Below are positions 3,399 through 62,430 of a DNA stretch of 64,000 bases, piece after piece. Source of the stretch: Microcaecilia unicolor (lineage: Eukaryota); the NCBI RefSeq assembly GCF_901765095.1, contig NC_044037.1, positions 104,359,279 to 104,423,278 on the forward strand, written 5' to 3'. Position 1 is the stretch's first letter; each line of letters opens with the position of its first letter. The notes beneath the pieces are model-generated. The model worked only from the letters and a program-made list of their open reading frames with translations. It did no database searches and was not told where the DNA came from. A program made the translations under genes and the position numbers.

Positions 3399-3454
3399 CT
3401 ATACCAAGGGGAGAGAAGATCAAACAACACAAGAACATAAGCATTGCCATACTG

Positions 3455-6655: not shown

Positions 6656-6722
6656 AGGGAACAAACGTCAACCATTCACTGAAGAAAATGCTGAAGAAGT
6701 GCATGTCAACTCGGTGGAACAA

Positions 6723-6815
6723 TTTATTTATTTTTATTTATTTATTTATTTTTTTTTTATTGCATTTGTATCCCACATTTTCCCACCTCTTTGCGGGCTC
6801 AGTGTGGCTTACAAT
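6723..6815 (-). repeat. Antisense partial copy of the LINE 3' tail module
   Basis: (ttta)n ttgcatttgtatcccacattttcccacctctttgcgggctcagtgtggcttaca. It is followed by a 55-bp tandem duplication at 6810-6930. Confidence 0.7.
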
Positions 6816-7321
6816 ATATTGTGAATGATGGAAATACAATTTGATACAATTTGTTACAGTACTGTTATGGTTACAATACATTGTGAATGATGGAAATACA
6901 ATTTGTTACAGTACTGTTATGGTTACATAGTGAGGAGTTATGTGAAGACAAAGTCAAAATCAAAATATCATTTGGGAAAATAGAACAGTGGAATGTATCA
7001 ATGGACAAAATATCATTTGTGGATAGAACAATGCAGTGTATCGATGGGGAAATGATAGGGCGATAGAACAATAGCAAGAGAGCATTAGGGTATAGCAATT
7101 TTATCTAAGGGTAGAGTTTTAGGTGTGGTGAAAGTACAGGGAAGAGAATTCAGAAGAGAGTGTATTGATGCATTTCTATTAGTGTGTATGGAATTCATGT
7201 GTTCTGATCCTTGCAATACATTTTTTCGAAGAGATGATGTGGGAGAGAGGTTCTGGAAGCAAAATTTAGGCTCTTAGGTAGAAAGCTGAAATCCAGATCC
7301 TCCAGGGTAGCATTTTCTGAA

Positions 7322-7549
7322 ATGCTACCTGTGCCACGCGCAGGGCCCAAGAGACAGGCAGAGCTCCAGAGTCTCAATGCGTGGATGAGACGATGGTGCA
7401 GGGAGGAGGGCTTTAGATTTGTTAGGAACTGGGCAACATTCTGGGGAAGGGGGAGCCTATTCCGAAAGGATGGGCTCCATCTTAACCAGAGTGGGACCAG
7501 GCTGCTGGCATCGGCGTTTAAGAAGGAGATAGAGCAGCTTTTAAACTAG
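7322..7549 (+). CDS. LINE ORF1 C-terminal fragment (...RKDGLHLNQSGTRLLA...)
   Basis: It sits immediately upstream of the ORF2 ATG at 7552, and the C-terminus resembles CR1/L2 ORF1 ends. Confidence 0.5.
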   Translation: MLPVPRAGPKRQAELQSLNAWMRRWCREEGFRFVRNWATFWGRGSLFRKDGLHLNQSGTRLLASAFKKEIEQLLN

Positions 7550-7551
7550 AA

Positions 7552-8634
7552 ATGGGGGGAAGGCCGACAGTCGCTCAAAAGAGCATGGTTCGGGATAAGG
7601 TATCTTTCAAAGATATCACCATAACAGGGAAGATAGAGTATCCTGATAGTGAGGTTGCAAAAGAGATTGTAGTAGATCGGGTATCTTTAAATAACAATAA
7701 AAATCAGACAAAAGATTGCCAATTAATACTGTCAAGTACTAAGCATGATGTACTTAGGAACAACAAACATAGTTTGAAATGTCTATATGCGAATGCCAGG
7801 AGCCTAAGAAATAAGATGGGGGAGTTGGAATATATTGCACTAAATGAAAAATTAGATATAATAGGCATCTCTGAGACCTGGTGGAAGGAGGATAACCAGT
7901 GGGACACTGTCATACCGGGGTACAAATTATATCGTAGTGATAGGGTGAATCGGATTGGTGGAGGGGTAGCATTGTATATTAACGAGAGCCTTGAATCAAA
8001 TAGATTGAAAATTCTGCAGGAAACAAAACACTCCTTGGAATCACTGTGGATTGAAATTCCATGTGCAAAGGGGAAAAGGATAGTGATAGGAGTGTACTAC
8101 CGTCCGCCTGGCCAGGACGAACAGACGGATGCGGAAATGTTAAAGGAAATCAGGGACGCAAACAAACTGGGCAATACAATAATAATGGGGGATTTCAATT
8201 ACCCGCATATAGACTGGGTTAATGTAACATCTGTACACGCAAGGGACATAAGATTTCTTGATGAAATCAAGGACAGTTTCATGGAACAGCTAGTTCAGGA
8301 GCCGACAAGAGAAGGAAAAATACTAGACTTAGTCCTTAGTGGTGCTCATGATCTAGTGCAGGGGGTAACGATACGAGGGCCGCTTGATAACAGTGATCAT
8401 AATATGATCGGTTTTGATATTGGCATTGAAGGAAGTGAAACTAGGAAATCAAGTACGCTAGCGTTTAACTATAGAAAAGGTGATTACGACAAAATGAGAA
8501 AAATGGTGAAAAAAAGACTGAAAGGAGCAGCTCGCAGAGTAAAAAACTTGCATCAGGCGTGGATGCTGTTTAAAAACACCATCCTGGAGGTTCAGGACAA
8601 ATATATTCCACAGAAAAAAGGGAAAAAAGACTAA
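7552..8634 (+). CDS. LINE ORF2, apurinic-endonuclease-like domain segment, ending at an in-frame stop
   Basis: Carries EN motifs (ISETWW, LYRSDR, GGGVALYI, GDFNYPHIDW, SDHNMI). Confidence 0.8.
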   Translation: MGGRPTVAQKSMVRDKVSFKDITITGKIEYPDSEVAKEIVVDRVSLNNNKNQTKDCQLILSSTKHDVLRNNKHSLKCLYANARSLRNKMGELEYIALNEKLDIIGISETWWKEDNQWDTVIPGYKLYRSDRVNRIGGGVALYINESLESNRLKILQETKHSLESLWIEIPCAKGKRIVIGVYYRPPGQDEQTDAEMLKEIRDANKLGNTIIMGDFNYPHIDWVNVTSVHARDIRFLDEIKDSFMEQLVQEPTREGKILDLVLSGAHDLVQGVTIRGPLDNSDHNMIGFDIGIEGSETRKSSTLAFNYRKGDYDKMRKMVKKRLKGAARRVKNLHQAWMLFKNTILEVQDKYIPQKKGKKD

Positions 8635-8812
8635 ACGTCAGCCGGCGTGGCTAAACAGTAAGATAAAGGAAATCATTAGAGCCAAAAAACAATCCTTCAG
8701 AAAGTGGAGAAGAGAACCAACTGAAAGTAACAGGATAGATCATAAGGAATGCCAAGCCAAATGCAAAGCGGAGATAAGGAGGGCAAAAAAGGACTTTGAG
8801 AAGAAATTAGCG

Positions 8813-10570
8813 TTGGAAGCAAAAATACATAGTAAAAATTTTTTTAGATACATTAAAAGCAGGAAACCGGCCAAAGAGTCGGTTGGGCCGCTGGACGAAA
8901 ATGGTGTTAAAGGGGCGATCAAGGAGGACAAAGCCGTAGCGGAGAAATTAAATGAATTCTTTGCTTCGGTCTTCACCGAGGAGGATTTGGGGGGGACACC
9001 GGTGCCGGAAAGAATATTTGAAGCGGGGGAGTCGGAGAAACTAAACAAATTCTCTGTAACCTTGGAGGATGTAATGGGTCAGTTCAGCAAGCTGAAGAGT
9101 AGTAAATCACCGGGACCTGATGGTATTCATCCCAGAGTATTAATAGAACTAAAAAATGAACTTGCGGAGCTACTGTTAGAAATATGCAATCTGTCCCTAA
9201 AATCGAGTGTAGTACCGGAAGACTGGAGGGTAGCCAATGTTACTCCGATTTTTAAGAAGGGTTCCAGAGGAGATCCGGGAAATTATAGACCGGTGAGTCT
9301 GACGTCGGTGCCGGGCAAGATGGTGGAGGCTATTATTAAGAATAAAATTGCAGAGCATATACAAAAACATGGACTGATGAGACAAAGTCAGCACGGATTT
9401 AGTGAAGGGAAGTCTTGCCTCACCAATCTAATGCATTTTTTTGAGGGGGTAAGCAAACATGTGGACAATGGGGAGCCGGTTGATATTGTATATCTGGATT
9501 TTCAGAAGGCGTTTGACAAAGTGCCGCACGAAAGACTCCTGAAGAAATTGCAGAGTCATGGAATCGGAGGTAGGGTATTATTATGGATTAAGAACTGGTT
9601 GAAAGATAGGAAGCAGAGAGTAGGATTGCGTGGCCAGTATTCTCAGTGGAGGAGGGTAGTTAGTGGGGTCCCGCAGGGGTCTGTGCTGGGTCCGTTGCTT
9701 TTTAATGTATTTATAAATGACCTAGAGATGGGAATAACTAGTGAGGTAATTAAATTCGCCGATGACACAAAATTATTCAGGGTCGTCAAGTCGCAGGAGG
9801 AATGTGAACGATTACAGGAGGACCTTGCGAGACTGGGAGAATGGGCGTGCAAGTGGCAGATGAAGTTCAATGTTGACAAGTGCAAAGTGATGCATGTGGG
9901 TAAGAGGAACCCGAATTATAGCTACGTCTTGCAAGGTTCCGCGTTAGGAGTTACGGATCAAGAAAGGGATCTGGGTGTCGTCGTCGATGATACGCTGAAA
10001 CCTTCTGCTCAGTGTGCTGCTGCGGCTAGGAAAGCGAATAGAATGTTGGGTGTTATTAGGAAGGGTATGGAGTCCAGGTGTGCGGATGTTATAATGCTGT
10101 TGTATCGCTCCATGGTGCGACCGCACCTGGAGTATTGTGTTCAGTACTGGTCTCCGTATCTCAAAAAAGATATAGTAGAATTGGAAAAGGTACAGCGAAG
10201 GGCGACGAAAATGATAGTGGGGATGGGACGACTTTCCTATGAAGAGAGGCTGAGAAGGCTAGGGCTTTTCAGCTTGGAGAAGAGACGGCTGAGGGGAGAT
10301 ATGATAGAAGTGTATAAAATAATGAGTGGAATGGATCGGGTGGATGTGAAGCGACTGTTCACGCTATCCAAAAATACTAGGACTAGAGGGCATGAGTTGA
10401 AGCTACAGTGTGGTAAATTTAAAACGAATCGGAGAAAATTTTTCTTCACCCAACATGTAATTAGACTCTGGAATTCGTTGCCGGAGAACGTGGTACGGGC
10501 GGTTAGCTTGACGGAGTTTAAAAAGGGGTTAGATAGATTCCTAAAGGACAAGTCCATGGACCGCTATTAA
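8813..10570 (+). CDS. LINE ORF2, reverse transcriptase domain plus C-terminal region
   Basis: Carries RT motifs (PGPDGIHPRVL, YRPVSLTSV, FDKVPHERLL, VPQGSVLGPLLF, FADDTKLF) and a CR1-type C-terminus (LEYCVQYWSPY...). Confidence 0.85.
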   Translation: MEAKIHSKNFFRYIKSRKPAKESVGPLDENGVKGAIKEDKAVAEKLNEFFASVFTEEDLGGTPVPERIFEAGESEKLNKFSVTLEDVMGQFSKLKSSKSPGPDGIHPRVLIELKNELAELLLEICNLSLKSSVVPEDWRVANVTPIFKKGSRGDPGNYRPVSLTSVPGKMVEAIIKNKIAEHIQKHGLMRQSQHGFSEGKSCLTNLMHFFEGVSKHVDNGEPVDIVYLDFQKAFDKVPHERLLKKLQSHGIGGRVLLWIKNWLKDRKQRVGLRGQYSQWRRVVSGVPQGSVLGPLLFNVFINDLEMGITSEVIKFADDTKLFRVVKSQEECERLQEDLARLGEWACKWQMKFNVDKCKVMHVGKRNPNYSYVLQGSALGVTDQERDLGVVVDDTLKPSAQCAAAARKANRMLGVIRKGMESRCADVIMLLYRSMVRPHLEYCVQYWSPYLKKDIVELEKVQRRATKMIVGMGRLSYEERLRRLGLFSLEKRRLRGDMIEVYKIMSGMDRVDVKRLFTLSKNTRTRGHELKLQCGKFKTNRRKFFFTQHVIRLWNSLPENVVRAVSLTEFKKGLDRFLKDKSMDRY

Positions 10571-11018
10571 ATGGACTTGGAAAAATTCCGCATTTTTAGG
10601 TATAACTTGTCTGGAATGTTTTTACGTTTGGGGAGCGTGCCAGGTGCCCTTGACCTGGATTGGCCACTGTCGGTGACAGGATGCTGGGCTAGATGGACCT
10701 TTGGTCTTTCCCAGTATGGCACTACTTATGTACTTATGTACTAGTAGTTTGCGGAAGTCGGTTAGTTCGTAGGTCGTTTTCAGGTTGCGTGGTACTGTAT
10801 TCCAGAAGTGTTCTTCTGACATTGAAATCTGTGGCAGAGAATACAGAGGAGCAATTGCCACTGAACCAGGTGCAACAAGCAGTTCCTGCCCAAATTGTGC
10901 ACTACTGATGACTCCTTGCTGGCAGAAGTTATGGTGTTGGAACCATCGGCAGATACTAAGCCTTCACTACATCTAGTGGTATCTATAAAATATAAGTTGA
11001 CAGCCATGTAATAGCATC

Positions 11019-17504: not shown

Positions 17505-19868
17505 TCATTGGTCACTTCCAAGTATCTGATGATGACTCGTCTCACATCCAGAAATTGAGAGCAGAGTATTCCTCTGGGTAGACCTCCCTACGAAAGGAAG
17601 GGAGACTGCTTTCAACGTCAGGTCTTTCAGAGATGCCCTCGACAAGGGTTCAAAAGGCGGCTTCTGCAATGCTCTTAGCACCAGGTTGAGATTCCACGCA
17701 GGCACCACTGAGTGCAGAGGAGGGCGCAGGTGATTAACTCCCTTGAGAAAGCGCACCACATCTGGCTGCGAAGCCAGGGAAGCACCCTTCAGGCGGCCCC
17801 TGAAGCAAGCCAGAGCCGCTACCTGAACTTTCAGGGAACTGAGCGACAGGCCTTTGTCCAGACCTTCTTGCAGGAACGCCAACACTGAAGAAATTGGAGC
17901 AGTGAAGGGAGAAAGTGAGCCTGCTTCACACCACGCTGCAAAGATACGCCAAAGCCTGGCGTAAGCCGTAGAAGTAGAGCGCTTCCTCGCTCTCAGCATA
18001 GTGGCGATGACCTTGTCTGAGAAGCCCTTCTTTCTCAGACGCTGCCGCTCAATAGCCAGGCCGGAAGACCAAAGGGGGAGGGATCCTCCATCACCACAGG
18101 ACCCTGATGTAACAGGCTCCACTGGCAGCCGCAGAGGATCGCCGACTGAGAGCCTGATCAAGTCCGCATACCAGGGACGTCTGGGCCAATCCGGACCCAC
18201 CAGGATTACCCTGCCGGGATGCTTTGCCACCCGGTCTAGCACCCTGCCCAACATGGGCCAGGGCGGGAACACATAGAGAAGCTCTTGTGTCGGCCACCGT
18301 TGGAGAAGAGCATCTACTCCCAGGGATCGAGGGTCCCGTCCTCTGCTGAAAAAGCGCGGCACTTGGCAATTGGCCGATGACGCCATAAGATCTAGGCTCG
18401 GCTGGCCCCAGCGCTTCGTGATGCCCAAGAACGCCTGAGCAGATAGCTGCCACTCTCCGGGCTCCAAGGTATGGCGACTGAGAAAGTCCGCCTTGACATT
18501 CATGACTCCGGCAATGTGGGCCGCTGACAGCTGTTCCAGGTTCGCTTCCGCCCACCAGCATAGATTCATGGCCTCCTTGGCTAGAGGGGCGCTCTTGGTA
18601 CCTCCCTGGCGGTTGACATAGGCCACAGCCGTGGCATTGTCTGACAGGACCCGTACAGGCTTCAACACCAGTACCGGGATGAACTCCAACAACACCAACC
18701 GAATGGCTCTGAGTTCCAGGAGGTTGATAGACCACTTGCCTCTGCAGGAGACCAGAGCCCCTGCGCTGTCCTTCCCAAGCAGTGAGCTCCCCAGCCCATC
18801 AAAGAGGCGTCTGTCGTGACGACAATCCACTCCGGGGTCACCAGAGGCATTCCTGCAGACAACTTGTCTGTCTGCGTCCACCAGCTCAGCGCCTTGCGCA
18901 CTGCTGGGTCCAAGGGAAGGCGCACAGCATAATCCTCCGACATCGGAGTCCAGCGCAGCAGCAGAGATTGTTGTAGTGGTCTCATATGAGCCCTGGCCCA
19001 GGGCACTACTTCCATCGTGGCCGTCATAGAGCCCAACAGCTGCACGTAGTCCCAAGCCCGAATAGGAGAGGCTACTAGGAACTAGTCCACCTGAGCCTGA
19101 AACTTGACAATCCGATTGTCTGGCAGGAACACTCTGCCCACTTGGGTGTCGAATCGAACTCCCAGATACTCCAGGGACTGAGTCGGGCGCAGCTGGCTTT
19201 ACTCCCAGTTGATGATCCACCCCAGGGAGCTCAAAAGAGCAACCACCCGGTTCACAGCTTTGCCGCACTCTGCATAAGAGGGGGCTTGGATCAACCAGTC
19301 GTCCAGATAAGGATGGACTTGAACTCCTTCCTTCCTCAGGAAGGCCGCGAAGACCACCATTACTTTGGAGAAGGTCCGCGGAGCAGTAGCCAACCCGAAC
19401 GGGAGGGCTCTGAACTGGAAGTGTCGGCCCATTACTGCAAAACGCAGAAAGCGTTGATGAGGAGGCCAGATGGGAATATGCAAGTACGCTTCCTTGATGT
19501 CCAAGGATGCCAGGAACTCTCCTGCCTTCACTGCCACTATAACAGAGCGGAGGGTCTCCATGCGAAAGTGCCGAACTTTCAAGGCCCAATTGACCCCTTT
19601 GAGGTCGAGGATAGGCCGTACAGAACCTCCTTTCTTTGGTATCACAAAGAAAAAGGAGTAACATCCCTTGCCAAGCTGATTTTCTGGCACCGGAACGACC
19701 GTCCCCAGGCGGATCAGATTGTTCAAGGTCTGCTGCACTACCACAGCTTTGACCGGAGACTTGCAGGGAGAGAGTACAAACCCGTCTTTTAAGGGTCGGC
19801 AGAACTCTAGCTTGTAGCCGTCTCTGATGACTTCCAGCGCCCAAGCGTCTGAAGTTATTGTGGTCCAC
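17505..19868 (-). CDS. DIRS-like RNase H, DIRS-specific conserved region and YR N-terminal domain. Real coding starts near 19200 after a -1/+1 frame change from the RT ORF; 19200-19868 of this ORF is out-of-frame overlap
   Basis: Shows LLELRAIRLVL...NVKADFLSR (RNase H), LLYVFPPW...RVILVGPDWPRRPWYADL, and GFSDKVIATMLRARKRSTSTAYARLWRIFAAWCE...VPAWNLNLVLRAL (YR core-binding domain). The ORF stops before the catalytic RHRY region, and only ~270 nt remain before the ICR. Confidence 0.75.
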   Translation of the reverse strand: MDHNNFRRLGAGSHQRRLQARVLPTLKRRVCTLSLQVSGQSCGSAADLEQSDPPGDGRSGARKSAWQGMLLLFLCDTKERRFCTAYPRPQRGQLGLESSALSHGDPPLCYSGSEGRRVPGILGHQGSVLAYSHLASSSTLSAFCSNGPTLPVQSPPVRVGYCSADLLQSNGGLRGLPEEGRSSSPSLSGRLVDPSPLLCRVRQSCEPGGCSFELPGVDHQLGVKPAAPDSVPGVSGSSIRHPSGQSVPARQSDCQVSGSGGLVPSSLSYSGLGLRAAVGLYDGHDGSSALGQGSYETTTTISAAALDSDVGGLCCAPSLGPSSAQGAELVDADRQVVCRNASGDPGVDCRHDRRLFDGLGSSLLGKDSAGALVSCRGKWSINLLELRAIRLVLLEFIPVLVLKPVRVLSDNATAVAYVNRQGGTKSAPLAKEAMNLCWWAEANLEQLSAAHIAGVMNVKADFLSRHTLEPGEWQLSAQAFLGITKRWGQPSLDLMASSANCQVPRFFSRGRDPRSLGVDALLQRWPTQELLYVFPPWPMLGRVLDRVAKHPGRVILVGPDWPRRPWYADLIRLSVGDPLRLPVEPVTSGSCGDGGSLPLWSSGLAIERQRLRKKGFSDKVIATMLRARKRSTSTAYARLWRIFAAWCEAGSLSPFTAPISSVLAFLQEGLDKGLSLSSLKVQVAALACFRGRLKGASLASQPDVVRFLKGVNHLRPPLHSVVPAWNLNLVLRALQKPPFEPLSRASLKDLTLKAVSLPFVGRSTQRNTLLSISGCETSHHQILGSDQ

Positions 19869-19969
19869 TCGCCCATAAACGAGGACAGCCGTCCTCCAAT
19901 CTGCACTGGGGCGTGGACCAAGGCCCCGTCATTGGGTACAAGACCCTGGGGGAGGACCGGAGGGAGCAC
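19199..19969 (-). CDS. DIRS-like reverse transcriptase domain
   Basis: Carries RT motifs (FFFVIPKKGGSVRPILDLKGVN, FLASLDIKEAYLHIPI, FRALPFGLATAPRTFSKVM, YLDDWLI). Confidence 0.85.
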   Translation of the reverse strand: MLPPVLPQGLVPNDGALVHAPVQIGGRLSSFMGEWTTITSDAWALEVIRDGYKLEFCRPLKDGFVLSPCKSPVKAVVVQQTLNNLIRLGTVVPVPENQLGKGCYSFFFVIPKKGGSVRPILDLKGVNWALKVRHFRMETLRSVIVAVKAGEFLASLDIKEAYLHIPIWPPHQRFLRFAVMGRHFQFRALPFGLATAPRTFSKVMVVFAAFLRKEGVQVHPYLDDWLIQAPSYAECGKAVNRVVALLSSLGWIINWE

Positions 19970-21596
19970 CTCCGGGACGGCGGTCTCTGCGAAAGGAATA
20001 CTGCTTGGGGCAGAAGTTCCTCTTGAAGGAAGAGGGGGCAGAGGAGCCCGACCTGCCCGGGCGGTACCGACGGGCTTCCTGAAACCGTCCTCTGGAGGTA
20101 CCAGGGCGAGTACTAGCCCGAGCCCTGACCTCTGGTAACTTCTTGCCCTTAGACGTGCCGAGATCGGTCACGATTTTGTCCAGCTCGACCCCAAAGAGCA
20201 GCTTGCCTTTAAAAGGCAATCTAGCCAGGCGGGATTTAGAGGCGTGGTCAGCAGACCAATGTTTCAGCCAAAGCCACTGCCGCGCAGAGATTGTCTGAGC
20301 CATGCCTTTCGCTGAGGCCCTCAAGACATCATACAGCAAGTCTGCCAAATAGGCTAAGCCCGATTCCAGGGCCGGCCAATCAGCCCTCAAGGAAAGATCC
20401 GAGGGGAAAGCCCGCTGCACCATAGTCAGGCACGCCCTGGCCACATAGGAGCCGCAAATTGAGGCCTGCAAACTTAAAGCAGCTGCCTCAAAGGACGACC
20501 TTAAGGCCGCCTCCAATCTTCTGTCTTGGGCGTCCTTTAGGGCCGTGCCACCTTCCACCGGCAACACCGTTTTCTTAGTCACCGCAGTGATTAAAGAATC
20601 CACGGTAGGCCACAGATAGGCCTCACGTTCACTTTCAGTCAAAGGATAGAGGCGGGACATAGCCCTAGCCACTTCAAGGCTCGCTTCCGGGACATCCCAT
20701 TGAGCCGCAATTAAGGTGTGCATGGCATCATGCACGTGGAAGTTTCTAGGCGGGCGCTTCGTCCCCAGCATAATGGCAGAGCCAACAGGGGCTGAGGGAG
20801 AGACGTCCTCCGGAGAGGAAATCTTCAAAGTGTCCATGGCCTGTACCAACAGGTTGGACAAATCCTCTGAGCTAAAAAGCCGCGCTGCAGAGGGGTCATC
20901 CGCTCCATCCGAGCGGGGATCCGTCTCCTCCAAGGAATCCGCAAAGGACCGTTGGGAGACCTCAGATACGCTGCCCTCATCTACATCAGAGGAGACAAAG
21001 TCCTCCAAGGCCTGGGAATCAACCCGAGGGCGTTTACCTCTGGGAACCTCAACCTCTTTACCAGACGAGGGAGCAGGGGCAGCGTTTTGCATAAGGAAGG
21101 CCTGATGCAGCAGCAAAACAAACTCGGGGGAGAAACCCCCCAGACTGTGTACTTCCGCAGCCTGGGCAACAGCCCTAGACGCACCCTCAACCAGCGCTCG
21201 CAAGAGCGGGGGAGAGACATGCTGCGCATCCAAAATGGCGTCCGGCGCGACACTCCGCGAAGGAGCCGCGCGGGAAGAACGGCGCTTAACTTTAGCCGCT
21301 TTTGTGCCGTCGCCCAAATTAAGGGCGTTCATGGCATTAATGTCTCCAACCTCAAGGGCGGCCCAAGAAGAAGCCGTCCGAGCCGCGTGGCCGGCCAAGA
21401 TGGCGGAGGCGAGGAGCGGGGGATGGGCGTTTATGGCGGGAAAAACCACCACGCCGGAGGAAGGACCGGGACATTCATCGGTCACGAAACTGTCACCCAA
21501 CAAGGGCGAATCAGGCTTTAAGACCCCCGCATCCCCTCTAGAAGCGCTCAAGCGATCCGGGTAGCGACTCTTTGCGCCCTCGCCCTCCGACGCCAT
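19929..21596 (-). CDS. DIRS-like ORF1 (gag-like), 555 aa, intact
   Basis: It is the first ORF of the element, and a paralogous fragment lies at 1109-1327. Confidence 0.6.
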   Translation of the reverse strand: MASEGEGAKSRYPDRLSASRGDAGVLKPDSPLLGDSFVTDECPGPSSGVVVFPAINAHPPLLASAILAGHAARTASSWAALEVGDINAMNALNLGDGTKAAKVKRRSSRAAPSRSVAPDAILDAQHVSPPLLRALVEGASRAVAQAAEVHSLGGFSPEFVLLLHQAFLMQNAAPAPSSGKEVEVPRGKRPRVDSQALEDFVSSDVDEGSVSEVSQRSFADSLEETDPRSDGADDPSAARLFSSEDLSNLLVQAMDTLKISSPEDVSPSAPVGSAIMLGTKRPPRNFHVHDAMHTLIAAQWDVPEASLEVARAMSRLYPLTESEREAYLWPTVDSLITAVTKKTVLPVEGGTALKDAQDRRLEAALRSSFEAAALSLQASICGSYVARACLTMVQRAFPSDLSLRADWPALESGLAYLADLLYDVLRASAKGMAQTISARQWLWLKHWSADHASKSRLARLPFKGKLLFGVELDKIVTDLGTSKGKKLPEVRARASTRPGTSRGRFQEARRYRPGRSGSSAPSSFKRNFCPKQYSFRRDRRPGGAPSGPPPGSCTQ

Positions 21597-26481: not shown

Positions 26482-28832
26482 TTGCATTGCCTCCAATCAG
26501 GGCCGTGCCAATGCGGTAAGTGGGGTAAGCAAGGCAGGGGGGCGCCTGCCTTTGAGGGGCGCCGCTGCCCTGCCATCCCTGCCTTCCACTCGCTTGCAAA
26601 ATCTTTTACCTGAAGTTGTGATTCTCCTACCTCCCCTGCCCTCCTTTTCATGGCAAACTGGAAGTGAAAGCAACGCAACGCAACGCAGCAGTATTCACTG
26701 AGGCAGGCAGGCTCTTCAAGTTATTTGAGAGAATGCAACCAGATTGCTATATATGTCTTTGGTTTGGGGATAACTCCTCACTCAGGGTGAACTTCAGAGC
26801 TTGAACAGCATTCATATTAAAGAGACTGGGAGAATGGGCGTGCAAGTGGCAGATGAAGTTCAATGTTGACAAGTGCAAAGTGATGCATGTGGGTAAGAGG
26901 AACCCGAATTATAGCTAGGTCTTGCAAGGTTCCGCGTTAGGAGTTACGGATCAAGAAAGGGATCTGGGTGTCGTCGTCGATGATACGCTGAAACCTTCTG
27001 CTCAGTGTGCTGCTGCGGCTAGGAAAGCGAATAGAATGTTGGGTGTTATTAAGAAGGGTATGGAGTCCAGGTGTGCGGATGTTATAATGCCGTTGTATCG
27101 CTCCATGGTGCGACCGCACCTGGAGTATTGTGTTCAGTACTGGTCTCCGTATCTCAAAAAAGATATAGTAGAATTGGAAAAGGTACAGCGAAGGGCGACG
27201 AAAATGATAGTGGGGATGGGACGACTTTCCTATGAAGAGAGGCTGAGAAGGCTAGGGCTTTTCAGCTTGGAGAAGAGACGGCTGAGGGGAGATATGATAG
27301 AAGTGTATAAAATAATGAGTGGAATGGATCGGGTGGATGTGAAGCGACTGTTCACGCTATCCAAAAATACTAGGACTAGAGGGCATGAGTTGAAGCTACA
27401 GTGTGGTAAATTTAAAACGAATCGGAGAAAATTTTTCTTCACCCAACGTGTAATTAGACTCTGGAATTCATTGCCGGAGAACGTGGTACGGGCGGTTAGC
27501 TTGACGGAGTTTAAAAAGGGGTTAGATAGATTCCTAAAGGACAAGTCCATAGACCGCTATTAAATGGACTGGAAAAATTCCTCATTTTTAGGTATAACTT
27601 GACTGGAATGTTTTTACGTTTGGGGAGCGTGCCAGGTGCCCTTGACCTGGATTGGCCACTGTCGGTGACAGGATGCTGGGCTAGATGGACCTTTGGTCTT
27701 TCCCAGTATGGCACTACTTATGTACTTATGTACTTATGTAAATTTTAAAAGTGCTAAAAATACGTTTTTTAAGTATTTGCATTAAATCTAATTGCAGAAT
27801 TCAGGTGCTGGGAGTCTGTACTTGGTTGTCATATGCTCAGATTTGTTTAAATCATATGCAAATTACTCTGTTTTTGGGAGGTTCACATTTGCATATTTAT
27901 GGATCAAAAATGATGGGAATGTTTACAGCCTTAATGTTAGGTCATGGCTCTGATCAAAAGTGTGAAGTTTGATCCAAAAACGAAGGGTTTATCTAGTGTT
28001 TTTCACTAAGAATTCCCATGAGTGTCTGTATGTTAATCTGCATTCAAATAGAGCTCTCTGATTGGATGATCAGCTTCTGTTAGAAATCTGCCGGGAATGG
28101 AACAGAGTGAGACAGCAACTGATCGTCGGTTTGGTCAAGAGAGACATGCAGCTGTGAGTTCCTGTTTGTGTTGACTGAAATTATAAGAGTGCCTGATTAT
28201 GTGGTAAATGAGAAAATATGAGTGAAAAGAGGTTGGTGGAGTTTGAGGTTTCGCTAGTGAGAAAAGGATCTGAATATTTCAGGATTACTTGAAGTTTATG
28301 AAGAATAGAAAAGGGTGAATTTCAGTTTAAGAGTGTTTAAATCCTATAAGCTATATAAAGGCTAGGTAGATTTAAGTGACTGTAAGCAAGGAAACCTTAA
28401 TATTTGATCTGAAATAAATATTTGATCTGAGATAGTTGATCAGAGATAAATGTTTGATCTGAATTATATCCTTTGGTGCAAAGGAGATTAGAAAAAGAAT
28501 CTTTGGAAACTAAGAGGATTTTGCCCACATTTTGAATTAGCATTCCTATTTTGAGTTGGAAATCTTTGGAAACTAAGAGGACTTTGCCCACATTTTGAAT
28601 TAGCATTCCTATTTTGAGTTGGAAATCTTTGAAGTGTTATGAAAATACATTTTGCTTTAATGACATTGCTAAACTTTAGAGTCAGAGACTTATCAATGAG
28701 GGATACCTACAGTGCTATTTTTTCCTGAGGTCTGGCTTACTTGCCTGCTCCCTTCTGTTCCTGCTCTGCTAGGCGGAGAGGGGGCGCCAACTGATAGTCT
28801 GCAGGGGGGCACCAGAGACCCTAGGCACGGCC
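26482..28832. mobile_element. Non-autonomous DNA-transposon-like element with CAGGGCCGTGCC termini, carrying a nested CR1 fragment and internal 62-bp tandem repeats
   Basis: The 5' end is cagggccgtgccaatgcggtaagtggggtaagca and the 3' end ...ggcacggccctg is its inverted complement. The internal CR1 copy is at 26820-27735. Tandem repeats lie at 28395-28625. Confidence 0.55.
26820..27735 (+). mobile_element. 5'-truncated copy of the same CR1-like LINE (RT C-terminus plus 3' UTR and (tacttatg)n tail)
   Basis: Near-identical to 9830-10740. ORF 26922..27563 repeats the C-terminal RT sequence. Confidence 0.85.
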
Positions 28833-46150: not shown

Positions 46151-47469
46151 GAACAAAAATCAGAAAAAGCGTCAAGGGCTGTCAAGCTGGGGATACTCAA
46201 GAGTGCTTTATTGATGACTCTTCAGTATTCCATGCTTGACGGCGCTTGATGCTCTTTCTGACTTTGTGTTGTGTGCTTCGACCCTTTCATTTGCCGCTTT
46301 CTTCCTACAACAATCAGCGTCTGTAAAACTGGCAAACTTTGGGAGGAATCTACCTCTCCAGGCCCACTTGGTGCTACGCTCTCGAGTCTTAAACTGACCT
46401 GATACCTCTCATCGTCTTGGGCTAAACACTACTAACAGTCCCAGTATTAGTTGTAAGGATAACGTCAGTTCCAAGCAGGCGGTGTCAGTGGACCTTCCGG
46501 TTCCTCCTGTTGCCTCTAGTTCCAGACCTGCAGCCACTGGTCCTTCTAAGATGCACAGCCATGTGGCCCAGCACCTTCTTTTTAAAGAAAAGTCAGCAAG
46601 TCCTTTCCCTTCTCCTTCCCACTGCCATACCAGCAGCAAAACACCACAGCTCACATGCAGGGCCGCAATCTCTTTACCATGGCTGTCAGTCCTGCCCCCT
46701 CTGACATCACCTTGCTGTTCTAGGGTTCTGGGGCAGAGCTGCCAACCCCATGTGTAAGTTGTGGTGTTTTGCTCCGCTGCTGCTGATCAGGAAAAGTAGC
46801 AGTATTGACATAGTAACATGGAGGGGCATAATCGAACGGATTGACATCACCTTGCTGTTCTAGGGTTCTTATCAATGGGGCGGAGCTAGGGTGGGGGTGG
46901 GGCTAGAATGGGGCCCCACCAAATTGGTCTGCATAGGGCCCCCACACTTGCTAAGACTGGCCCTGACTGGGCAGTGGCGGCGCCACTCATAGGCTGCCTG
47001 CAACCTGCACCAGGACTTCTTCCCTGAACAGTCCCACCCCTCAATCCCCCTGTACTGTGCAAATATAAAGAGATGCAAATTTCAAAAACTGACATATTTC
47101 AATCACTTTACTATAGGTTAACAAATACAAATAAAACAAAACATGGAAAATATAATATCATTTTAGTGGACTAAATACATTTTTCAATTAGCTTTCAAAG
47201 GCCAAAACCTCTTTCCTCAGGTCAGGACAGTATACTGCTGTTATGGTATTCTGTTCTGACACAAGAAAGGAGGGTTTGGTCTCCAAACATTAGTCAAAAA
47301 TGTATTAAAATTAGTCCAGCAAACATTACTTCCATTTTCTGTATTTATTAACACAGCTACCATACTACTTTATCCTAAACTAAAAATAAAATTCATTTTT
47401 TCCTACCTTTGTGGTCTGGCCGTTTACTGTTTTTAATCGTGTTGGTCCCAGTCTCTTGTTTCTTCTTTG

Positions 47470-48480
47470 CTCAATCTTCAACTTTCCCCCCTTTCCATCC
47501 AGCATCTACCCCCTCTCTCCCCCTTTTCCTTCCAGCATCTGCCCCCTCTCTCTCTCCTTTCCATCCAGCATCTGCCCCCTCTCTTCCCTCTTGCCATCCG
47601 GCGTCTATTTTCTCCATCCATGTGTAGTTTTTCTTCTCTTTTCCCTTTCCCTCATCTCTGTCAGTATGCGTCTCCTTCCTCTTTCTTCACTCCCCTCCAT
47701 CCATATGCAACTCCTTCCTCTTTCTTCCCTCTCCTCCATCCATGTCCATTTTTCCTCTCTCCGCCCCTCCATCCATGTTCATCTCACTTCCTCTCTTCCC
47801 TCTCCTCCATCCATGTCCAGCATTTTTCCTCTCTCCACTCCATCCATGTGCATCTCCTCCTGTCTTCCCTCCCCTCCATCCATTTCCAGCATTTCTCCTG
47901 CCCTCCCCTGCATCCATGTACAGCAACTCTCATCTCTCCCCTGCCCTCCCAGCCATCAATATTCAGCAACTCTCCTCTCTCCCCTATCCTCTCCTGCATC
48001 CATGTCCAGCAATTCTCCTCTCTCCCCTGCCCTCCCCTGCATCCATGTCCAGCAACTCTCCTCTCTCCCCTGCCCTCTCCTGCATCTATGTCCAGCAACT
48101 CTCTTCTCTCCCCTGCCCTCCCCTGTATCCATGTTCAGCAACTCTCCTCTCTCCCTTGACCTCCCCTGTATCCATGTTCAGCAAGTCTCCTCTCTCCCCT
48201 GACCTCCCCTGTATCCATGTTCAGCAAGTCTCCTCTCTCCCCTGCCCTCCCCTGTATCCATGTTCAGCAACTCTCCTCTCTCCCCTGTCCCCTGCCCTCC
48301 CCTGTATCCATGTTCAGCAACTCTCCTCTCTCCCCTGTCCCCTGCCCTCCCCAGTATCCATGTTCAGCAACTCTCCTCTCTCCCCTGTCCCCTGCCCCCC
48401 CTGTATCCATGTTCAGCAACTCTCCTCTCTCCCCTGCCCCCTGCTCAGCATCAATGTTCAGCGATTTCTTCCCTGCCCTA
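47470..48480 (+). repeat. Pyrimidine-rich satellite array with a ~43-50-bp unit (catccatgtccagcaactctcctctctcccctgccctcccctg)
   Basis: A tandem periodicity is visible, and the long ORFs at 47411-48504 are its artefacts. Confidence 0.8.
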
Positions 48481-48490
48481 CCTCTTAAAA

Positions 48491-48915: not shown

Positions 48916-49746
48916 TTACTTGAAGTAATCAGTCATAGTCCTCTGTACACTATTGTGTCTGTGAGTTCCATAGACTACGTCTGCCAGACGGTAAAAACTG
49001 TCATAGCACTGACATCCAGTGACCTCCAGATAGGCCCGCACGGTGTTAAGACTCTCCAGCACTCTTGCAAAAGTGACAGGAGGTTGTTGAATTTCGTCAG
49101 CATGTGCCTCACTGCTCATTTCATCATCTGTTTCATCATCAGCCGTTGCCTGCGTGTCGGCCCATATCTCGACATCAGTGCTGTCGTCAGCTGTTTGTAG
49201 ATCGTAATCAACAGCTACGTAGTGATGAAACTCCTCTTCAGTAACACCGGCTGGGATGTCAATAGCCTGTTCATCTGATGCATTTGCAACAGCTGCATCT
49301 GTTTCGTCCCTCTCTACATCCTTAACAAAGCTTGCCCGCTTGTAGCAGTTCACAATGGCTGCCTGTGTAACATGATTCCAGGCTTCTTTCTGCTTTTGTA
49401 GGGAATCCAACAGTGATAGATTACAAGCCAGTTCAACAGCACGTTTATCTTTGCCAGTCTGGTCATCCATAACGCTCATCAGACAACGTAGCACAAGAGC
49501 CCAATAATGTTTTTTGAAATTGGCTATTATGCCCTGATCCATAGGTTGGATCAGAGAGGTAGTGTTTGGTGGCAGGAAGACCACCTTGATGTTAGACAGC
49601 TTGATATCATCACTGTGTGCAGCACAATTATCACAAAGCAACAAAATCTGACGCTTTTGTGCCTGCATTCTAGTGTCTAACTTCTTTAGCCACTGCTTCC
49701 AAATTTCCCCAGTCATCCATGAATTTGCGTTAGCCTCGTATGACAC
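48916..49746 (-). pseudogene. Tigger/pogo DDE transposase catalytic domain (frameshifted relative to upstream pieces)
   Basis: Shows LLLCDNCAAHS...VVFLPPNTTSLIQPMDQGIIANFKKHY, as in the Tigger1/2 DDE region. Confidence 0.8.
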
Positions 49747-53384: not shown

Positions 53385-53770
53385 CAGTGGTGTGCTGGAG
53401 CCGGCTCGCGGTTGTTACATTTTTAAAGCTCTTGTGAGCCAGTTGTTCTGGCAGGCGAGCCGGCTCCCAAGGGTGACGCAACCCGGCAGTAAGTGAGGTA
53501 AGCATGGCAGGAGGGCGCCACAAGCCATGCTTACACTCCTGCCACTCTGGGGGGTTTAAATCGTTGATTTACCTCCATTGCAGCAGCTGCAGTGGAAGCC
53601 CGTCTCTAGTCTTCCCTTCTTTCCCGTCAGTGTTCCGCCTTCTTCTGATGTCATTTCCTCTTTCCGCGAGGGCGGGACACTGACAGGAAACGATGGGAAG
53701 GCTAGAGATGGGCTTTCACTGCTGCTGCTGCGACGGAGGTAAATCAACGATTTAAACCCCCCAGGAGGCA
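53385..53770. mobile_element. Diverged copy of the same MITE family with an internal palindrome (53530-53760)
   Basis: Shares ...ggcagtaagtgaggtaagcatggcaggagggcgcc... and a hairpin gtttaaatcgttgatttacctccattgcagcagc.../...gctgctgctgcgacggaggtaaatcaacgatttaaac. Confidence 0.5.
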
Positions 53771-53789
53771 GGAGCAAAACGAGGGATGT

Positions 53790-54990
53790 TTGGGGAAGGG
53801 CGGGCAGGTGGACATTGGAGCGGGAGGGCAGGGGAGAGGAGCATCAAAGCCATCGATGGAGATGGATGGGAAGGCAGGGCCCAGGGAGAGAGGAGAAGTT
53901 GCTGGACATGGAGGGGAGGGGAGGGCAGGGGAGAGAGGACAGCTGCTGAATATGGATGGATGGAGGGGGAGGGGAGAGAGGAGAATCGCTGGGTATGGAT
54001 GGCTGGAGGGGAGCGAGGAGAATCGCTGGGTATGGGTGGCTGGAGGGGGGGCAGGGGATAGAAGAGAATCACTGGGTATGGGTAGCTGGAGGGGGAGGCA
54101 GGGGATAGAAGAGAATCGTTGGGTATAGGTGGCTGGAGGGGGGCAGGGGAGAGAGGAGAATTGCTGATATGGATGAATGGAGGGAGGGCAGGGGAGAGAA
54201 GAGTTACTGGACATGGGTGGAGGGGAGGGCAGGGGAGAGGAGAGTTGCTGGATATGGGTGGCTGGAGGGGGGACAGGGGAGAGAAGAGAATCGTTGGGTA
54301 TGGACGGCTGGAGGGGGGCAGGGGAGAGAAGAGAATCGCTGGGTATGGACGGCTGGAGGTGGGGCAGGAGAGAGAAGAGAATCGCTGGGTATGGACGGCT
54401 GGAGGGGGGCAGGGGAGAGAAGAGAATCGATGGGTATGGATGGATAGAGGGGGGCAGGAGAGAGAAGAGAATTGCTGATATGGATGGATGGAGGGAGGGC
54501 AGGGGAGAGGAGAGTTGCTGGATATGGGTGGCTGGAGGGGGGACAGGGGAGAGAAGAGAATCGTTGGGTATGGACGGCTGGAGGGGGGCAGGGGAGAGAA
54601 GAGAATCGCTGGGTATGGACGGCTGGAGGGGGGCAGGGGAGAGAAGAGAATCGATGGGTATGGATGGATAGAGGGGGGCAGGAGAGAGAAGAGAATTGCT
54701 GATATGGATGGATGGAGGGAGGGCAGGGGAGAGGAGAGTTGCTGGACATGGATGGATGGAGTGGAGGGCAGGGGAGAGGTGAGTTGCTGGACATGGGTGG
54801 ATGGAGGGGTGGGCAGGGGGGAGAGGAGGATTGCTGGACGAGTGAATGGAGTGGAGGGCAGGGGAGAGGAGGGTTGCTGGACATGGATGGAGGAGAGGGA
54901 AGGGAGTGAGAAGAAATGCTGGACATGGATGGAGGGGAGGGAAGAGTGAGGAAGGAGATGAGATGAGGGAAAAGGAAAAGAGGAGAAAAA
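53790..54990 (-). repeat. The same satellite in inverted orientation (purine-rich on the + strand)
   Basis: The unit gggtatggacggctggaggggggcaggggagagaagagaatcgct is the reverse complement of the 47470-48480 unit. Confidence 0.8.
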
Positions 54991-55489
54991 CTGCATATGG
55001 ATGAAGAAAATAGGCAGATTCACTGGACAGTCAAGTCTGCGGAGGACCCAGCTTTTATTTATGAATGTAGGGCAAGAAATGAAGAAGAAAAACGGAAAGT
55101 AAAGAAATAAATGGAAAGGAAGCCCTGGAAACTGAGTTAAGAGGACAGATAGCAGCAGAATCGGATACTGGGCCAGCATGATCAGAACAACAAAGTCACC
55201 AGACAACAAAGGTCACCAGACAAACATTATAGTGTTTGGAATATGTCCACTTTGAGAATCAGGTGCTCAACATTAAAAGTTTATATTTATTTACTTATTT
55301 ATGGCATTTTATCTCACATTAAACATGAATTAGATTGGAACCTGGGATCATTTAGTTTTTTTTTTCCTAGAGTAATGCATTGAACTCTCCCCCCAGGCTC
55401 TCTCTCCAGCTATAGCCAGCTCTGCAATTTGTGGGGGGGGGGGGGGCGCAGAGGTGGACCGGGGAGAGAGCATGTTGTTAAACATTTAC

Positions 55490-60170: not shown

Positions 60171-60479
60171 TAAACATAGGCACTCGTGTACATTAAGAAT
60201 ATGTCCATATTTGTTGATGTTTTTACATTTCAATTCTTGGACTGGTATGATTTGTATGTTTTTGTAGTTAAAAAAATGAGTAGAGGTTTCATCAAAAGTA
60301 TTTATTATAAAGGGTTTTCAACAAAGAAGAAAATTATTAGAGCAATTCCTGAAGCTTTTTTTTTGTGTGTGTATGGGGGGGGGGGGGGGGGGGGGGGGAG
60401 GGTAGCCCTATTTGAGTGATACAGTATAATAATATAATATTATTAAAAGTTCTTCTTGCTCTGATGTCTGGGGTTAGGT

Positions 60480-60692: not shown

Positions 60693-60780
60693 TTTAAACA
60701 AAAACATAGAACAGATGTATATTTCCCAAACTTGACATAATCTAGTCCCTAAACATGTGTAAATACATTGTTTAAATTTT

Positions 60781-62430
60781 CTTTTTTTTTTTTTTTATTT
60801 ATGAAAATTTATACATTTATAATCAAGCAAATGCTTGTTTGAAAGAGCAATACATTTCAATCAGTTCAAAGAAAATACATAACAAGGAAGTAATTGTTTG
60901 AAATTTCTTGCTCAAGTCCACATTATTGGGACAAGATTTTAAGAAATGGAATTATTTATAAACATAAGTTTCAAAGATAGAGCACTAGATGATAACAGCC
61001 ATCATTCCACAGTGTTAATTACATATTAAAGGGATAAGATGTTTTAAAATACCCCTATTTTGCCTTGAGGTAAGGAATGCTGTCAGCTGAGCTGGATCAA
61101 AAAATACATACTTATTTGCCTGGTACCTCACCACACACTTGCAAGGGTATCGCAAGTAAAGTGTTGCACCCAGCTGAGTTACAGCTGATTTCATTAAAAG
61201 AAAAGACTTCCTACGTTTTTGCGTGTCTCTGGAGATGTCAGGAAACATTTGTATTTTCTGACCAAGGAATGTTTTATCTTTATTCTTAAAGTACATGGAC
61301 ATTAACCACTGTTTATCAGGTGCCAATGCCACTGTAACTATTAATGTCGATGGAATTACATTTTCATTATCTGCTAGTTCAAGTAAATCAGTGACATTCA
61401 ATGGTTGTTCTTGGCTTGCTATTTTTTGGTCACTCCTTTCTTTAACTGGAAGATAATACACTTGGGTGAAAGGAGGAATCAATTCCTCCCTTACACCCAG
61501 AATTTCCATTATATATTTTTTTAACATTTCCCTAGGAGATATAACAATTTGTTTAGGAAAGTTTAACAAACGTAAATTATTGCTTCTAGCATTGTTCTCA
61601 AGAGATTCAGTCTTTCTTCTTAATGAGGTCAAGTCTTTAATCATAGCCTCCTGCTGAGTAAGCAATCTTTTCATATCCAAATCTTTTTGTTCTTCTATCT
61701 GTTCCAGTTTACCTATTTTTAAGTCCATGTTGTTTATTTTTTCCTCTTGTTTTAACATTTCCTGGTTTAGTCTATTTATCTGTGGAGTAATTGATTTCCC
61801 TAGATCTACAATCAGAGTCCACAAAGAGTCCAGAGTAACTTCTGCTGGCTTGTGCATATCGAAAGAAAAAAGTGGTGGTCCTACCGGATTCATGCTAGCA
61901 GCATTCCCCACCGAATTCGTTGTAAAAATCGGTGTAGCCATCAAGGCTTCTTGCTCTGCAGCCAATCGATGGTCTGCCTCCTGACTGGAACTGGTCTCAC
62001 CGCTTCTGGGGGACCCGTTCAAAGTCGTCTCTGACGGAGTGCTACAGCCCAACAGCTGAGGGGGTGGTTCCCTTGTGTCAGGGCTGAGCGTAAGCTCTAG
62101 CCCAGGAGACGCTGCCGTGCCTCCATTCGCACTGGCACGTATCAGCGGGCTGCCTCCCGGCACTCCAAATACTGCGGTAGATGAAGCTACAGACCTCTGC
62201 AAAAAGGACCGAATATCCTGCGAAGTGGGAGCCGATCGCTGCGGAACATAGGAGGCGGACTTGCCCCTTCACTTCGGCATCTTGCTAGGAAATCAGAGAG
62301 CTGTAGAAATGGTGGCTGTTAGCAGGTACGCTCAGCGGCCATCTTGTCCTCGTTTAAATTTTCTACCTTGATTTTTTGGGGCATTATATTGTACTAATCA
62401 GGTTGGTCCTAGCCTCTCCATTTTCCATGT
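60781..62430 (-). mobile_element. ORF1-only L1-type retroelement (HAL1-like). It has a 5' leader, an intact 395-aa ORF1, a ~220-nt 3' UTR with AATAAA, and an A17 tail. The 5' boundary is approximate
   Basis: The minus-strand poly-A is at 60781-60797, preceded by cataaataaa. No ORF2 lies between the ORF1 stop (61015) and the poly-A. Confidence 0.65.
61015..62202 (-). CDS. L1-type ORF1p (Transposase_22-like) with a coiled-coil, RRM and C-terminal domain. Intact
   Basis: The coiled-coil is LKQEEKINNMDLKIGKLEQIEEQKDLDMKRLLTQQEAMIKDLTSLRRKTESLENN. ARSNNLRLLNFPK is the counterpart of L1 RRNNLRIIGVPE. The C-terminal domain IQMFPDISRDTQKRRKSF...LYLRYPCKCVVRYQANKYVFFDPAQLTAFL resembles the L1 ORF1p CTD (FPDLS...YPAKL...F). 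Confidence 0.75.
   Translation of the reverse strand: MQRSVASSTAVFGVPGGSPLIRASANGGTAASPGLELTLSPDTREPPPQLLGCSTPSETTLNGSPRSGETSSSQEADHRLAAEQEALMATPIFTTNSVGNAASMNPVGPPLFSFDMHKPAEVTLDSLWTLIVDLGKSITPQINRLNQEMLKQEEKINNMDLKIGKLEQIEEQKDLDMKRLLTQQEAMIKDLTSLRRKTESLENNARSNNLRLLNFPKQIVISPREMLKKYIMEILGVREELIPPFTQVYYLPVKERSDQKIASQEQPLNVTDLLELADNENVIPSTLIVTVALAPDKQWLMSMYFKNKDKTFLGQKIQMFPDISRDTQKRRKSFLLMKSAVTQLGATLYLRYPCKCVVRYQANKYVFFDPAQLTAFLTSRQNRGILKHLIPLICN

Follow-up and report, generated by a model that had tools for sequence, protein, structure and literature searches.

The closest described systems to the element reported here are the HAL1 elements of mammals, non-autonomous derivatives of the retrotransposon L1 that encode ORF1p, the protein of the first open reading frame (ORF), and no other; they arose several times in that class (PMC5753468). 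They are thought to need their own ORF1p in cis and to receive ORF2p in trans (PMC3627910). For HAL1, PMC5753468 and PMC3627910 cite Smit 1999 and Bao & Jurka 2010. Non-autonomous long interspersed nuclear elements (LINEs) that keep only ORF1 also exist in other clades, namely HeT-A (Jockey clade) in Drosophila and Ag-Sponge (CR1 clade) in Anopheles (PMC5786205). Within the literature that we searched, HAL1-type elements have so far been described only in mammals, and that search returned no ORF1-only or HAL1-like element from amphibians or caecilians. Here we describe such an element in a 64,000-nucleotide stretch of the caecilian Microcaecilia unicolor (contig NC_044037.1, positions 104,359,279 to 104,423,278 of the forward strand), hereafter the window. 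We consider it quite likely that this element is a retroposed copy of a HAL1-like, non-autonomous L1 derivative that encodes ORF1p only, and a member of a family that in our searches is confined to caecilians. Judged from the literature rather than from Repbase or Dfam, the family is probably undescribed.

The copy in the window

Window coordinates are used throughout, and the retroelement unit is read on the minus strand (Table 1). The ORF1-only unit spans 62351-60782, or 1570 bp between the two copies of a perfect 12-bp target-site duplication (TSD). A sequence-only reading of the stretch had given its extent as 60781-62430, which overshoots the 5' end by 79 bp; its suggestion that flanking duplications be sought proved a good one. 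On the plus strand the duplicated letters are GTTTAAATTTTC, at both 62352-62363 and 60770-60781. The rebuilt empty site, ...GGTA joined to GAAAATTTAAAC..., is rich in T and A and resembles an L1 endonuclease site (T-rich/A-rich). At the other end of the element, the 3' untranslated region (UTR), polyadenylation signal and poly-A tail anticipated by the sequence-only reading are all present, with the correction that the tail is A15 rather than A17 and overlaps the AATAAA. This signal likewise runs into the tail in human L1. The perfect 12-bp duplication, the AATAAA and the A15 tail are together hallmarks of target-primed reverse transcription. Given the perfect duplication and the purity of the tail, the window copy is apparently a young insertion of full length.

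The state of the reading frame is less simple than the sequence-only reading had it, namely an intact ORF1 of 395 amino acids. A stop-free frame of 395 codons does exist on the minus strand (61015-62202), but it begins at TTG and has no ATG of its own. We place the true start at the ATG at 62280-62278 because P0001, a Microcaecilia unicolor protein, and three Geotrypetes proteins all begin MPKRRGKSAS. Where P0001-P0004 have this sequence the window translates as MPK*RGKSAS, within the upstream in-frame context ...SKMPK*RGKSASYVPQRSAPTSQDIRSFLQRS... (the asterisk marks a stop). From that ATG the frame runs to a TAA stop at 61017-61015. The TGA at codon 4 likely arose from CGA by a CpG transition, as the arginine of the relatives suggests at the protein level. 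CpG dinucleotides crowd the start of the ORF, with 24 in its first 400 nt versus 6 in the remainder. Over 411 columns the window ORF is 85% identical to P0001, with no frameshift and a single in-frame indel of two codons; its identity falls to 41-44% with the Geotrypetes proteins and to 35% with Rhinatrema.

Translation from the next in-frame ATG, at 61941, would yield 308 amino acids with all of the folded domains kept; several short out-of-frame upstream ORFs precede that ATG. An uninterrupted ORF1 from its ATG, on which competence for retrotransposition depends, is thus absent from the window copy. We regard this copy as inactive, since with a TGA at codon 4 a full-length ORF1p is no longer possible. 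No L1-type ORF2 follows ORF1 or occurs anywhere in the 64-kb window, just as the sequence-only reading had stated.

Table 1. Coordinates of the window element, duplications at its Rhinatrema relatives, and domains of the canonical L1 at locus L005 (L005 coordinates).
Sequence	Feature	Position	Strand	Remarks
Window	TSD, 5' copy	62352..62363	-	GAAAATTTAAAC on the element strand; 12/12 match with 60770-60781, adjoining both element ends
Window	5' UTR, 71 nt	62281..62351	-	starts GAGGACAAGATGGCCGC directly after the duplication
Window	YY1-type box CAAGATGGCCG	62336..62346	-	nt 6-16 of the element; putative internal-promoter initiator
Window	ORF1, 421 codons and TAA stop	61015..62280	-	L1 ORF1p-type protein, interrupted at codon 4; from translation and alignment to P0001
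Window	Premature TGA, codon 4	62269..62271	-	Arg in all close relatives
Window	N-terminal region	61834..62268	-	low-complexity, Pro/Ser-rich, CpG-rich; conserved LSPD..R.PPP motif (alignments)
Window	Coiled-coil helix	61588..61833	-	model residues 13-94; AlphaFold2 pLDDT >90
Window	RRM domain	61285..61578	-	NLRLLNFPK motif and family-specific insert ...PLNVTDLLELAD...; AlphaFold2, Foldseek, hhalign
Window	C-terminal domain (CTD) of ORF1p	61027..61251	-	phmmer to mouse 2jrb, profile match, Foldseek
Window	3' UTR, 218 nt, AT-rich	60797..61014	-	
Window	AATAAA polyadenylation signal	60794..60799	-	runs into the tail
Window	Poly-A tail, A15	60782..60796	-	pure; T15 on the plus strand
Window	TSD, 3' copy	60770..60781	-	exact 12/12 match to 62352-62363
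L001	TSD			AAACTTGTTCGATGTA
L003	TSD			TAAATGTGCCCCATGC
L004	TSD			AAAATATGATTGAA
L005	TSD of the ORF1-only element			(AA)TCATCCTA
L006	TSD			AAAGTTTCAGCTCCTCTGA
L007	TSD			AAATGTTAGCAC
L005	Canonical L1, ORF1, 291 amino acids	3374-4249		
L005	Canonical L1, APE domain	5003-6577		
L005	Canonical L1, RT domain	6546-7910		
L005	Canonical L1, zf-RVT C-terminus	9511-10131		after the insertion

Homology to L1 ORF1p

The window ORF is clearly a homologue of L1 ORF1p, and its coiled coil, RRM and CTD are the three parts that the sequence-only reading had recognised in it. An AlphaFold2 model of residues 112-395, which takes in the N-terminal region only with the last ~12 residues before the coiled-coil helix, reaches a mean pLDDT of 90.1 and contains a helix of 82 residues and two alpha/beta domains, the first of them RRM-like. 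When this model was compared with the PDB by Foldseek, the top 10 matches were all chains of the human L1 ORF1p trimer (2ykp, 2yko, 2ykq), at E values of 3e-10 to 1e-6 and target TM-scores of 0.62-0.78 over about 225 columns. The RRM region matches 2ykp, 2yko, 2ykq and 2w7a, and the C-terminal part of the coiled-coil helix aligns within the stalk of the human trimer.

Profile comparisons lead to the same place. In hhalign, 27 caecilian sequences align colinearly with human ORF1p (a query checked against PDB 2yko, 477 bits) over 216 columns, with a probability of 91% and E 1e-6; NLRLLNFPK is paired with the human NLRLIGVPE, and the CTD is aligned too. The ORF1-only family against the canonical L1 ORF1p of Rhinatrema gives 98.2% probability, E 4.6e-14 and 26% identity, and the same canonical protein used as a tblastn query finds the window ORF at E 3e-9. 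The CTD of mouse L1 ORF1p (2jrb) is matched at E 0.0087 by phmmer from the single sequence and at E 0.0022 by the profile.

One could still suppose that the frame is stop-free by chance, or that it belongs to an unrelated coiled-coil gene whose likeness to L1 is spurious. Pfam lends this idea some color, in that scans of the window ORF, of four close relatives and of ten more members of the family yield only coiled-coil noise, with weak matches such as FapA at E 0.011. Against it, homologues exist, both in P0001 and in the 36 clusters at E<=1e-30 described below; the confident model matches only the human L1 ORF1p trimer in Foldseek at E<1e-6; and the profile matches to human and to caecilian L1 ORF1p are colinear. 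We consider the idea refuted.

The ORF1-only family of caecilians

An exhaustive profile search returned 254 representative clusters (50% identity) at E<=1e-3, of which 36, from three caecilians, reach E<=1e-30. All of the strong matches whose names were checked (20/20) are caecilian, and the nearest relatives outside that group are coelacanth proteins that UniProt calls 'L1 transposable element RRM domain-containing protein' (E 5.6e-19). Seven loci of Rhinatrema bivittatum (L001-L007) were studied, which with the window makes eight elements from two genomes. The seven share a common plan in which an intronless ORF1 is followed by a 3' UTR of ~210-375 nt, an AATAAA and an A-run. The 3' UTR measures ~210-270 nt in five of them; at L006, where ORF1 is cut short near the C-terminus, it is ~375 nt after the premature stop, and L004 was read approximately.

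ORF2 is missing from every one of the eight elements, and at L001-L007 no element-owned plus-strand ORF of at least 200 amino acids lies within 7.5 kb downstream. The sequence-only reading had named copies that extend into an ORF2 as the finding that would speak against it; no such copy occurs at the seven Rhinatrema loci. The Rhinatrema proteins are 30-40% identical to the window ORF and among themselves, with synonymous sites saturated. Seven of the eight elements have their own TSDs, of 10-19 bp and starting in A-rich sequence, the exception being L002, where no TSD was found. The insertion sites are unrelated from copy to copy and include the inside of an L1 ORF2 (L005) and an intron of an MTF2-like gene (L006). 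With all eight elements devoid of ORF2, their proteins only 30-40% identical and seven of them flanked by duplications of their own, the absence of ORF2 is the design of the family and not an accident of the window copy. Together with the homology to L1 ORF1p, this also upholds the HAL1-like interpretation that the sequence-only reading had put forward. The MTF2/PHF19-like gene at L006:4359-17011 (minus strand) encodes Tudor_2, PHD and Mtf2_C domains, and the ORF1-only element lies antisense in one of its introns.

A canonical L1 is present in the same genome. Locus L005 (Rhinatrema bivittatum, LR584396.1) carries a full-length copy at 3267-10811, which begins GGGGGGCGCTCTAGCGCTGAGTCAAGATGGCTGCC, ends in an A11 tail and has its own 14-bp duplication (GAGGAAGAAAACTT). 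Its ORF2 is split by a nested insertion, which is itself a 1.6-kb ORF1-only element at ~7900-9479. In a neighbour-joining tree built with capped distances and 300 bootstraps, 26 ORF1-only caecilian sequences form one clade in 100% of the bootstraps. The canonical Rhinatrema ORF1p groups with a 282-amino-acid Geotrypetes protein (91%) outside that clade, beside coelacanth and teleost L1 ORF1p. Over aligned columns, the identity of the ORF1-only proteins is ~23% to the canonical caecilian ORF1p and ~17% to the human protein. This separate placement of the canonical ORF1p indicates that the ORF1-only family is not a recent deletion derivative of the L005 L1.

These data bear on the view that the window element is a sporadic defective L1, which lost ORF2 by internal deletion, or was prematurely polyadenylated after ORF1, and was retroposed once. 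Vertebrate genomes commonly contain L1 copies that are truncated or rearranged, and caecilians do possess a canonical L1 whose 5' end is of the same style. However, this view would have to account for a layout of ORF1, 3' UTR, AATAAA and A-run that recurs in eight of eight elements, in deeply diverged subfamilies of two genomes, and for an ORF1 clade that is distinct from the canonical caecilian ORF1p in both identity and bootstrap support. We judge it highly improbable.

The family may be an interspersed, multi-copy one. Besides the 36 strong clusters, the 90%-identity cluster of P0061 covers about nine annotated loci, and two degraded ORF1-family fragments turned up in the ~85 kb of flanking sequence (L002:6546-6931, tblastn E 1e-17; L004:1359-2055, E 1e-10). 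The 64-kb window holds no second copy. From the two fragments one may suspect that Rhinatrema has many copies which annotation has missed.

These copies also bear on a second alternative, a variant of the domesticated gene that the sequence-only reading had raised, in which the element is the processed retrocopy of a host gene domesticated from L1 ORF1, in the manner of L1TD1, and was copied passively by L1. The relatives stand in NCBI annotation as genes named 'uncharacterized protein LOC...', processed pseudogenes also show a poly-A tail and a TSD, and most of the 90% clusters are singletons, all of which would suit such a gene. Yet all eight copies are themselves retroposed, intronless, 30-40% identical and at unrelated sites, and the two extra fragments come from what is in effect random flanking sequence. 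Promoter-like features (the YY1 box at nt 6-16, the tandem monomers) are kept at the insertion boundary, as self-propagation needs, and several of the gene models are plainly chimeras or mislabels. What we found is not a single fixed host locus free of the hallmarks of retroposition, since the window copy and six relatives have TSDs. The TSDs, poly-A tails, promoter-like 5' ends and many divergent copies thus make a domesticated gene very unlikely, and we return to a HAL1-like element as the preferred reading.

The gene models deserve a remark of their own. P0005, P0014, P0035, P0070, P0092 and P0113 are ORF1-only proteins that caecilian annotation has mislabelled or joined to host genes. The wrong labels include 'peptide chain release factor 1, mitochondrial isoform X2' and 'proteasome assembly chaperone 1 isoform X1', and the chimeric partners include VWD/C8/TIL, THADA, CC2D2A and KRAB-zinc-finger proteins. 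P0035, P0070, P0092 and P0113 were considered as ORF1-ORF2 fusions and rejected, their long matches being due to chimeric host-gene models.

The 5' ends of the elements suggest putative internal promoters of two kinds. The 11-mer CAAGATGGCCG of the window copy is identical to nt 12-22 of human L1, a YY1-binding site (PMC2912911) that positions transcription initiation there (PMC2912911; PMC11602158). Within the 64 kb the 10-nt core of the box, AAGATGGCCG, is present a single time, against an expectation of 0.07. The ORF1-only elements at L005 and L006 start GGAGGAACTAAGATGGCCGC and GGAGATCCAAGATGGCGG, respectively, directly after their duplications, and both carry a YY1-type box. L002 has such a box ~90 nt upstream of its ATG, and the canonical L1 of L005 has one, CAAGATGGCTGCC, ~20 nt from its 5' end. 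Because the boxes stand at or near the 5' end in relatives, the 71-nt 5' UTR of the window copy is most likely complete, and appears to represent the full-length 5' end of the element. By analogy with human L1, the box is a putative initiator of an internal promoter.

The subfamilies of L001, L003, L004 and L007 have longer 5' UTRs than the window copy. Tandem monomers occupy L003:7206-7789 (198 bp x 2.9, 99% identity) and L004:7549-7794 (134 bp x 1.8), and repeats of ~170 bp were seen by eye upstream of 8001 in L007; these arrays resemble the promoters of mouse L1 (PMC11602158). A CpG-rich module of ~75 nt is common to the 5' UTRs of L001:9790-9900, L003:7790-7900, L004:7795-7905 and L007 ~7880-7960 and is absent from the window copy. 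It holds a near-perfect hairpin of 15-17 bp, AAAGCCGCGCGCGCC-TAAGG-GGCGCGCGCGGCTTT, and at L004 the module folds at -50 kcal/mol (z -3.05). Aligned 5' UTR stretches of L001, L003 and L004 have a mean column identity of 77%, versus 33-36% for the ORF1 proteins, which suggests that 5' UTRs have been swapped between subfamilies or that they are under strong constraint.

For active relatives, as distinct from the window copy, we propose the following life cycle. RNA polymerase II would start at the 5' end of the element, placed there by the YY1-type box at nt 6-16, and the resulting mRNA would be polyadenylated at the terminal AATAAA. Translation would yield an ORF1p whose fold of coiled coil, RRM and CTD is seen in the model, and which presumably forms trimers that coat, in cis, the RNA encoding it. 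An autonomous L1 would then contribute its ORF2p, with endonuclease and reverse transcriptase, to engage the poly-A tail and to nick a T-rich/A-rich site, and the RNA would be copied by target-primed reverse transcription, leaving a TSD of 12-19 bp; an L1 enzyme is the presumed agent of this step. The L005 L1 is a candidate for the autonomous partner by virtue of its co-occurrence with the family.

We tentatively extend this proposal in time, and would put what follows at somewhat short of an even chance. The ORF1-only caecilian elements may be a single ancient clade that lost ORF2 before Rhinatrema split from the other caecilians, and that has lasted and been diversifying since then as a parasite of L1, in contrast to mammals, where such elements were brief and recurrent offshoots of L1. 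Such a history would include an evolution of ORF1p of its own (the N-terminal extension and the RRM insert) and swaps of promoter between the YY1 box and the monomer-plus-CpG-hairpin type. The split of Rhinatrema from other caecilians took place roughly 200 million years ago or more. If this history is true, a cis-acting ORF1p would by itself suffice to keep a retroelement lineage going through deep time.

Several points weigh against a HAL1-like element and have to be set beside the evidence for it. First, the mobilisation in trans by L1 ORF2p, the binding of YY1, and the function of ORF1p and the requirement for it in cis are all things that we infer. Second, in a neutral simulation run to 15% amino-acid divergence the probability of one stop or fewer was 0.12, which is not significant. 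The evidence for selection on the ORF of the window copy is weak; the case for ORF function is made instead by the conservation of fold and motifs among proteins that are only 30-40% identical. Third, most of the 90%-identity protein clusters have a single member, the P0061 cluster being an exception, and the annotated copies show no sign of large recent bursts. Fourth, the survey consisted of eight loci and protein sets rather than whole genomes, and the clade may possess an ORF2-bearing master copy. Fifth, searching PDB sequences with the HMMER profile returns mostly coiled-coil proteins, with the mouse CTD marginal (E 0.002-0.009).

Finally, Pfam Transposase_22 (PF02994), the profile by which the sequence-only reading had proposed to confirm the L1 likeness, does not match the window ORF at E<=1 or the four relatives at E<=10, and homology was established by Foldseek, hhalign and tblastn instead. 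We do not take this miss to speak against an L1 origin, given that genuine L1 ORF1p from outside mammals likewise falls below the gathering threshold of the model (22.4 bits). The canonical caecilian ORF1p, encoded upstream of an ORF2 with APE, RT and zf-RVT, scores 17.9 bits, and coelacanth L1 ORF1p scores 19.0 bits. The Transposase_22 model is, on these scores, insensitive outside mammals.

The window holds several other repetitive elements. A CR1-like LINE lies at 7552-10570 on the plus strand (APE ORF 7552-8634, RT ORF 8813-10570), and a second CR1-like 3' fragment, its C-terminus nearly identical, at 26922-27563 on the same strand. Their C-terminal motif, ...LGLFSLEKRRLRGDMIEVYKIM..., is one that we take to be typical of CR1. 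The only LINE reverse transcriptase in the window is CR1-like and not that of an L1 partner. A GC-rich block (57% GC) on the minus strand at 17505-21596 holds a large retroelement, possibly DIRS-like, with an ORF with a LAP2alpha-like domain (19929-21596), an RVT_1 domain (19199-19969) and a 787-amino-acid ORF without a Pfam match (17505-19868); a similar element is found at L001 ~2961-7132. A fragment of a pogo/Tigger-type DDE_1 transposase (Pfam E 3e-29) occupies 48916-49746 on the minus strand. Long stop-free frames in multiple phases at 47411-48488 (plus) and 53744-55209 (minus), in Pro/Ser/Leu-rich repetitive sequence with strong GC skew, look like tandem or satellite-like repeats and not genes. 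About 400 bp beyond the 3' copy of the duplication, at 60370-60400, a (TG)n stretch is followed by a run of ~30 G; this could be either a simple repeat or a tract that is difficult to sequence.

Significance and comparison with known systems

That L1 needs its ORF1p in cis, whereas ORF2p can be borrowed, is known from nature mainly through HAL1-type elements. A second, independent and much more diversified lineage, if the caecilian family is truly that, would offer a natural comparison for what ORF1p contributes to retrotransposition, for the ways in which an L1 parasite evades its partner or competes with it, and for how promoters of the L1 type turn over (5'-terminal YY1 boxes versus monomer arrays). 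There is a practical side as well. In the NCBI gene sets of all three caecilian genomes these elements are called 'uncharacterized', fused or mislabelled, and Pfam is blind to the domain; a model of the family could fix both.

Of the systems outside the L1 clade, HeT-A and Ag-Sponge resemble the caecilian element in that a gag-like ORF1 is kept and a reverse transcriptase is borrowed from an autonomous relative. They differ from it in belonging to other LINE clades, in the folds of their ORF1 proteins and in the recognition of the 3' end, and HeT-A is in addition targeted to telomeres.

L1TD1 (PMC4161310) is likewise an ORF1p-derived protein without an ORF2, and its domains (2lr6/3soo) belong to the L1 ORF1p fold family by Foldseek and phmmer. 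As a host gene, however, L1TD1 has one copy and a fixed locus, whereas the caecilian element is retroposed, intronless and apparently multi-copy, with TSDs, poly-A tails and a promoter-like 5' end.

With canonical L1, both that of human and that of L005, the element shares the fold of coiled coil, RRM and CTD, a YY1-type box within ~30 nt of the 5' end, an AATAAA that merges into the poly-A tail, and duplications (12-19 bp) at T-rich/A-rich sites. Some of its ORF1-only relatives share monomeric 5' UTRs with mouse L1. It is unlike canonical L1 in having neither endonuclease nor reverse transcriptase, so that it is not autonomous, and in measuring 1.6 kb rather than ~6 kb.

The likeness to HAL1 is the closest. 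The caecilian element shows the features of that type, namely homology to L1 ORF1p, the lack of ORF2 by family design, and L1-type integration with a poly-A 3' end and TSDs of variable length. Help from L1 ORF2p in trans together with ORF1p in cis is presumed for both, and in both the coding capacity has long been kept. The caecilian family differs from HAL1 in its host, an amphibian and not a mammal; in an ORF1p clade whose distance to the resident canonical L1 ORF1p (~23% identity) equals that to coelacanth L1; and in a protein whose N-terminal region is long and Pro/Ser-rich and whose RRM carries an insert. Judged from the identity of ~17% to human ORF1p rather than from HAL1 consensuses, it likely arose independently of the mammalian HAL1 families (among them HAL1, HAL1B and HAL1M8 in Repbase).

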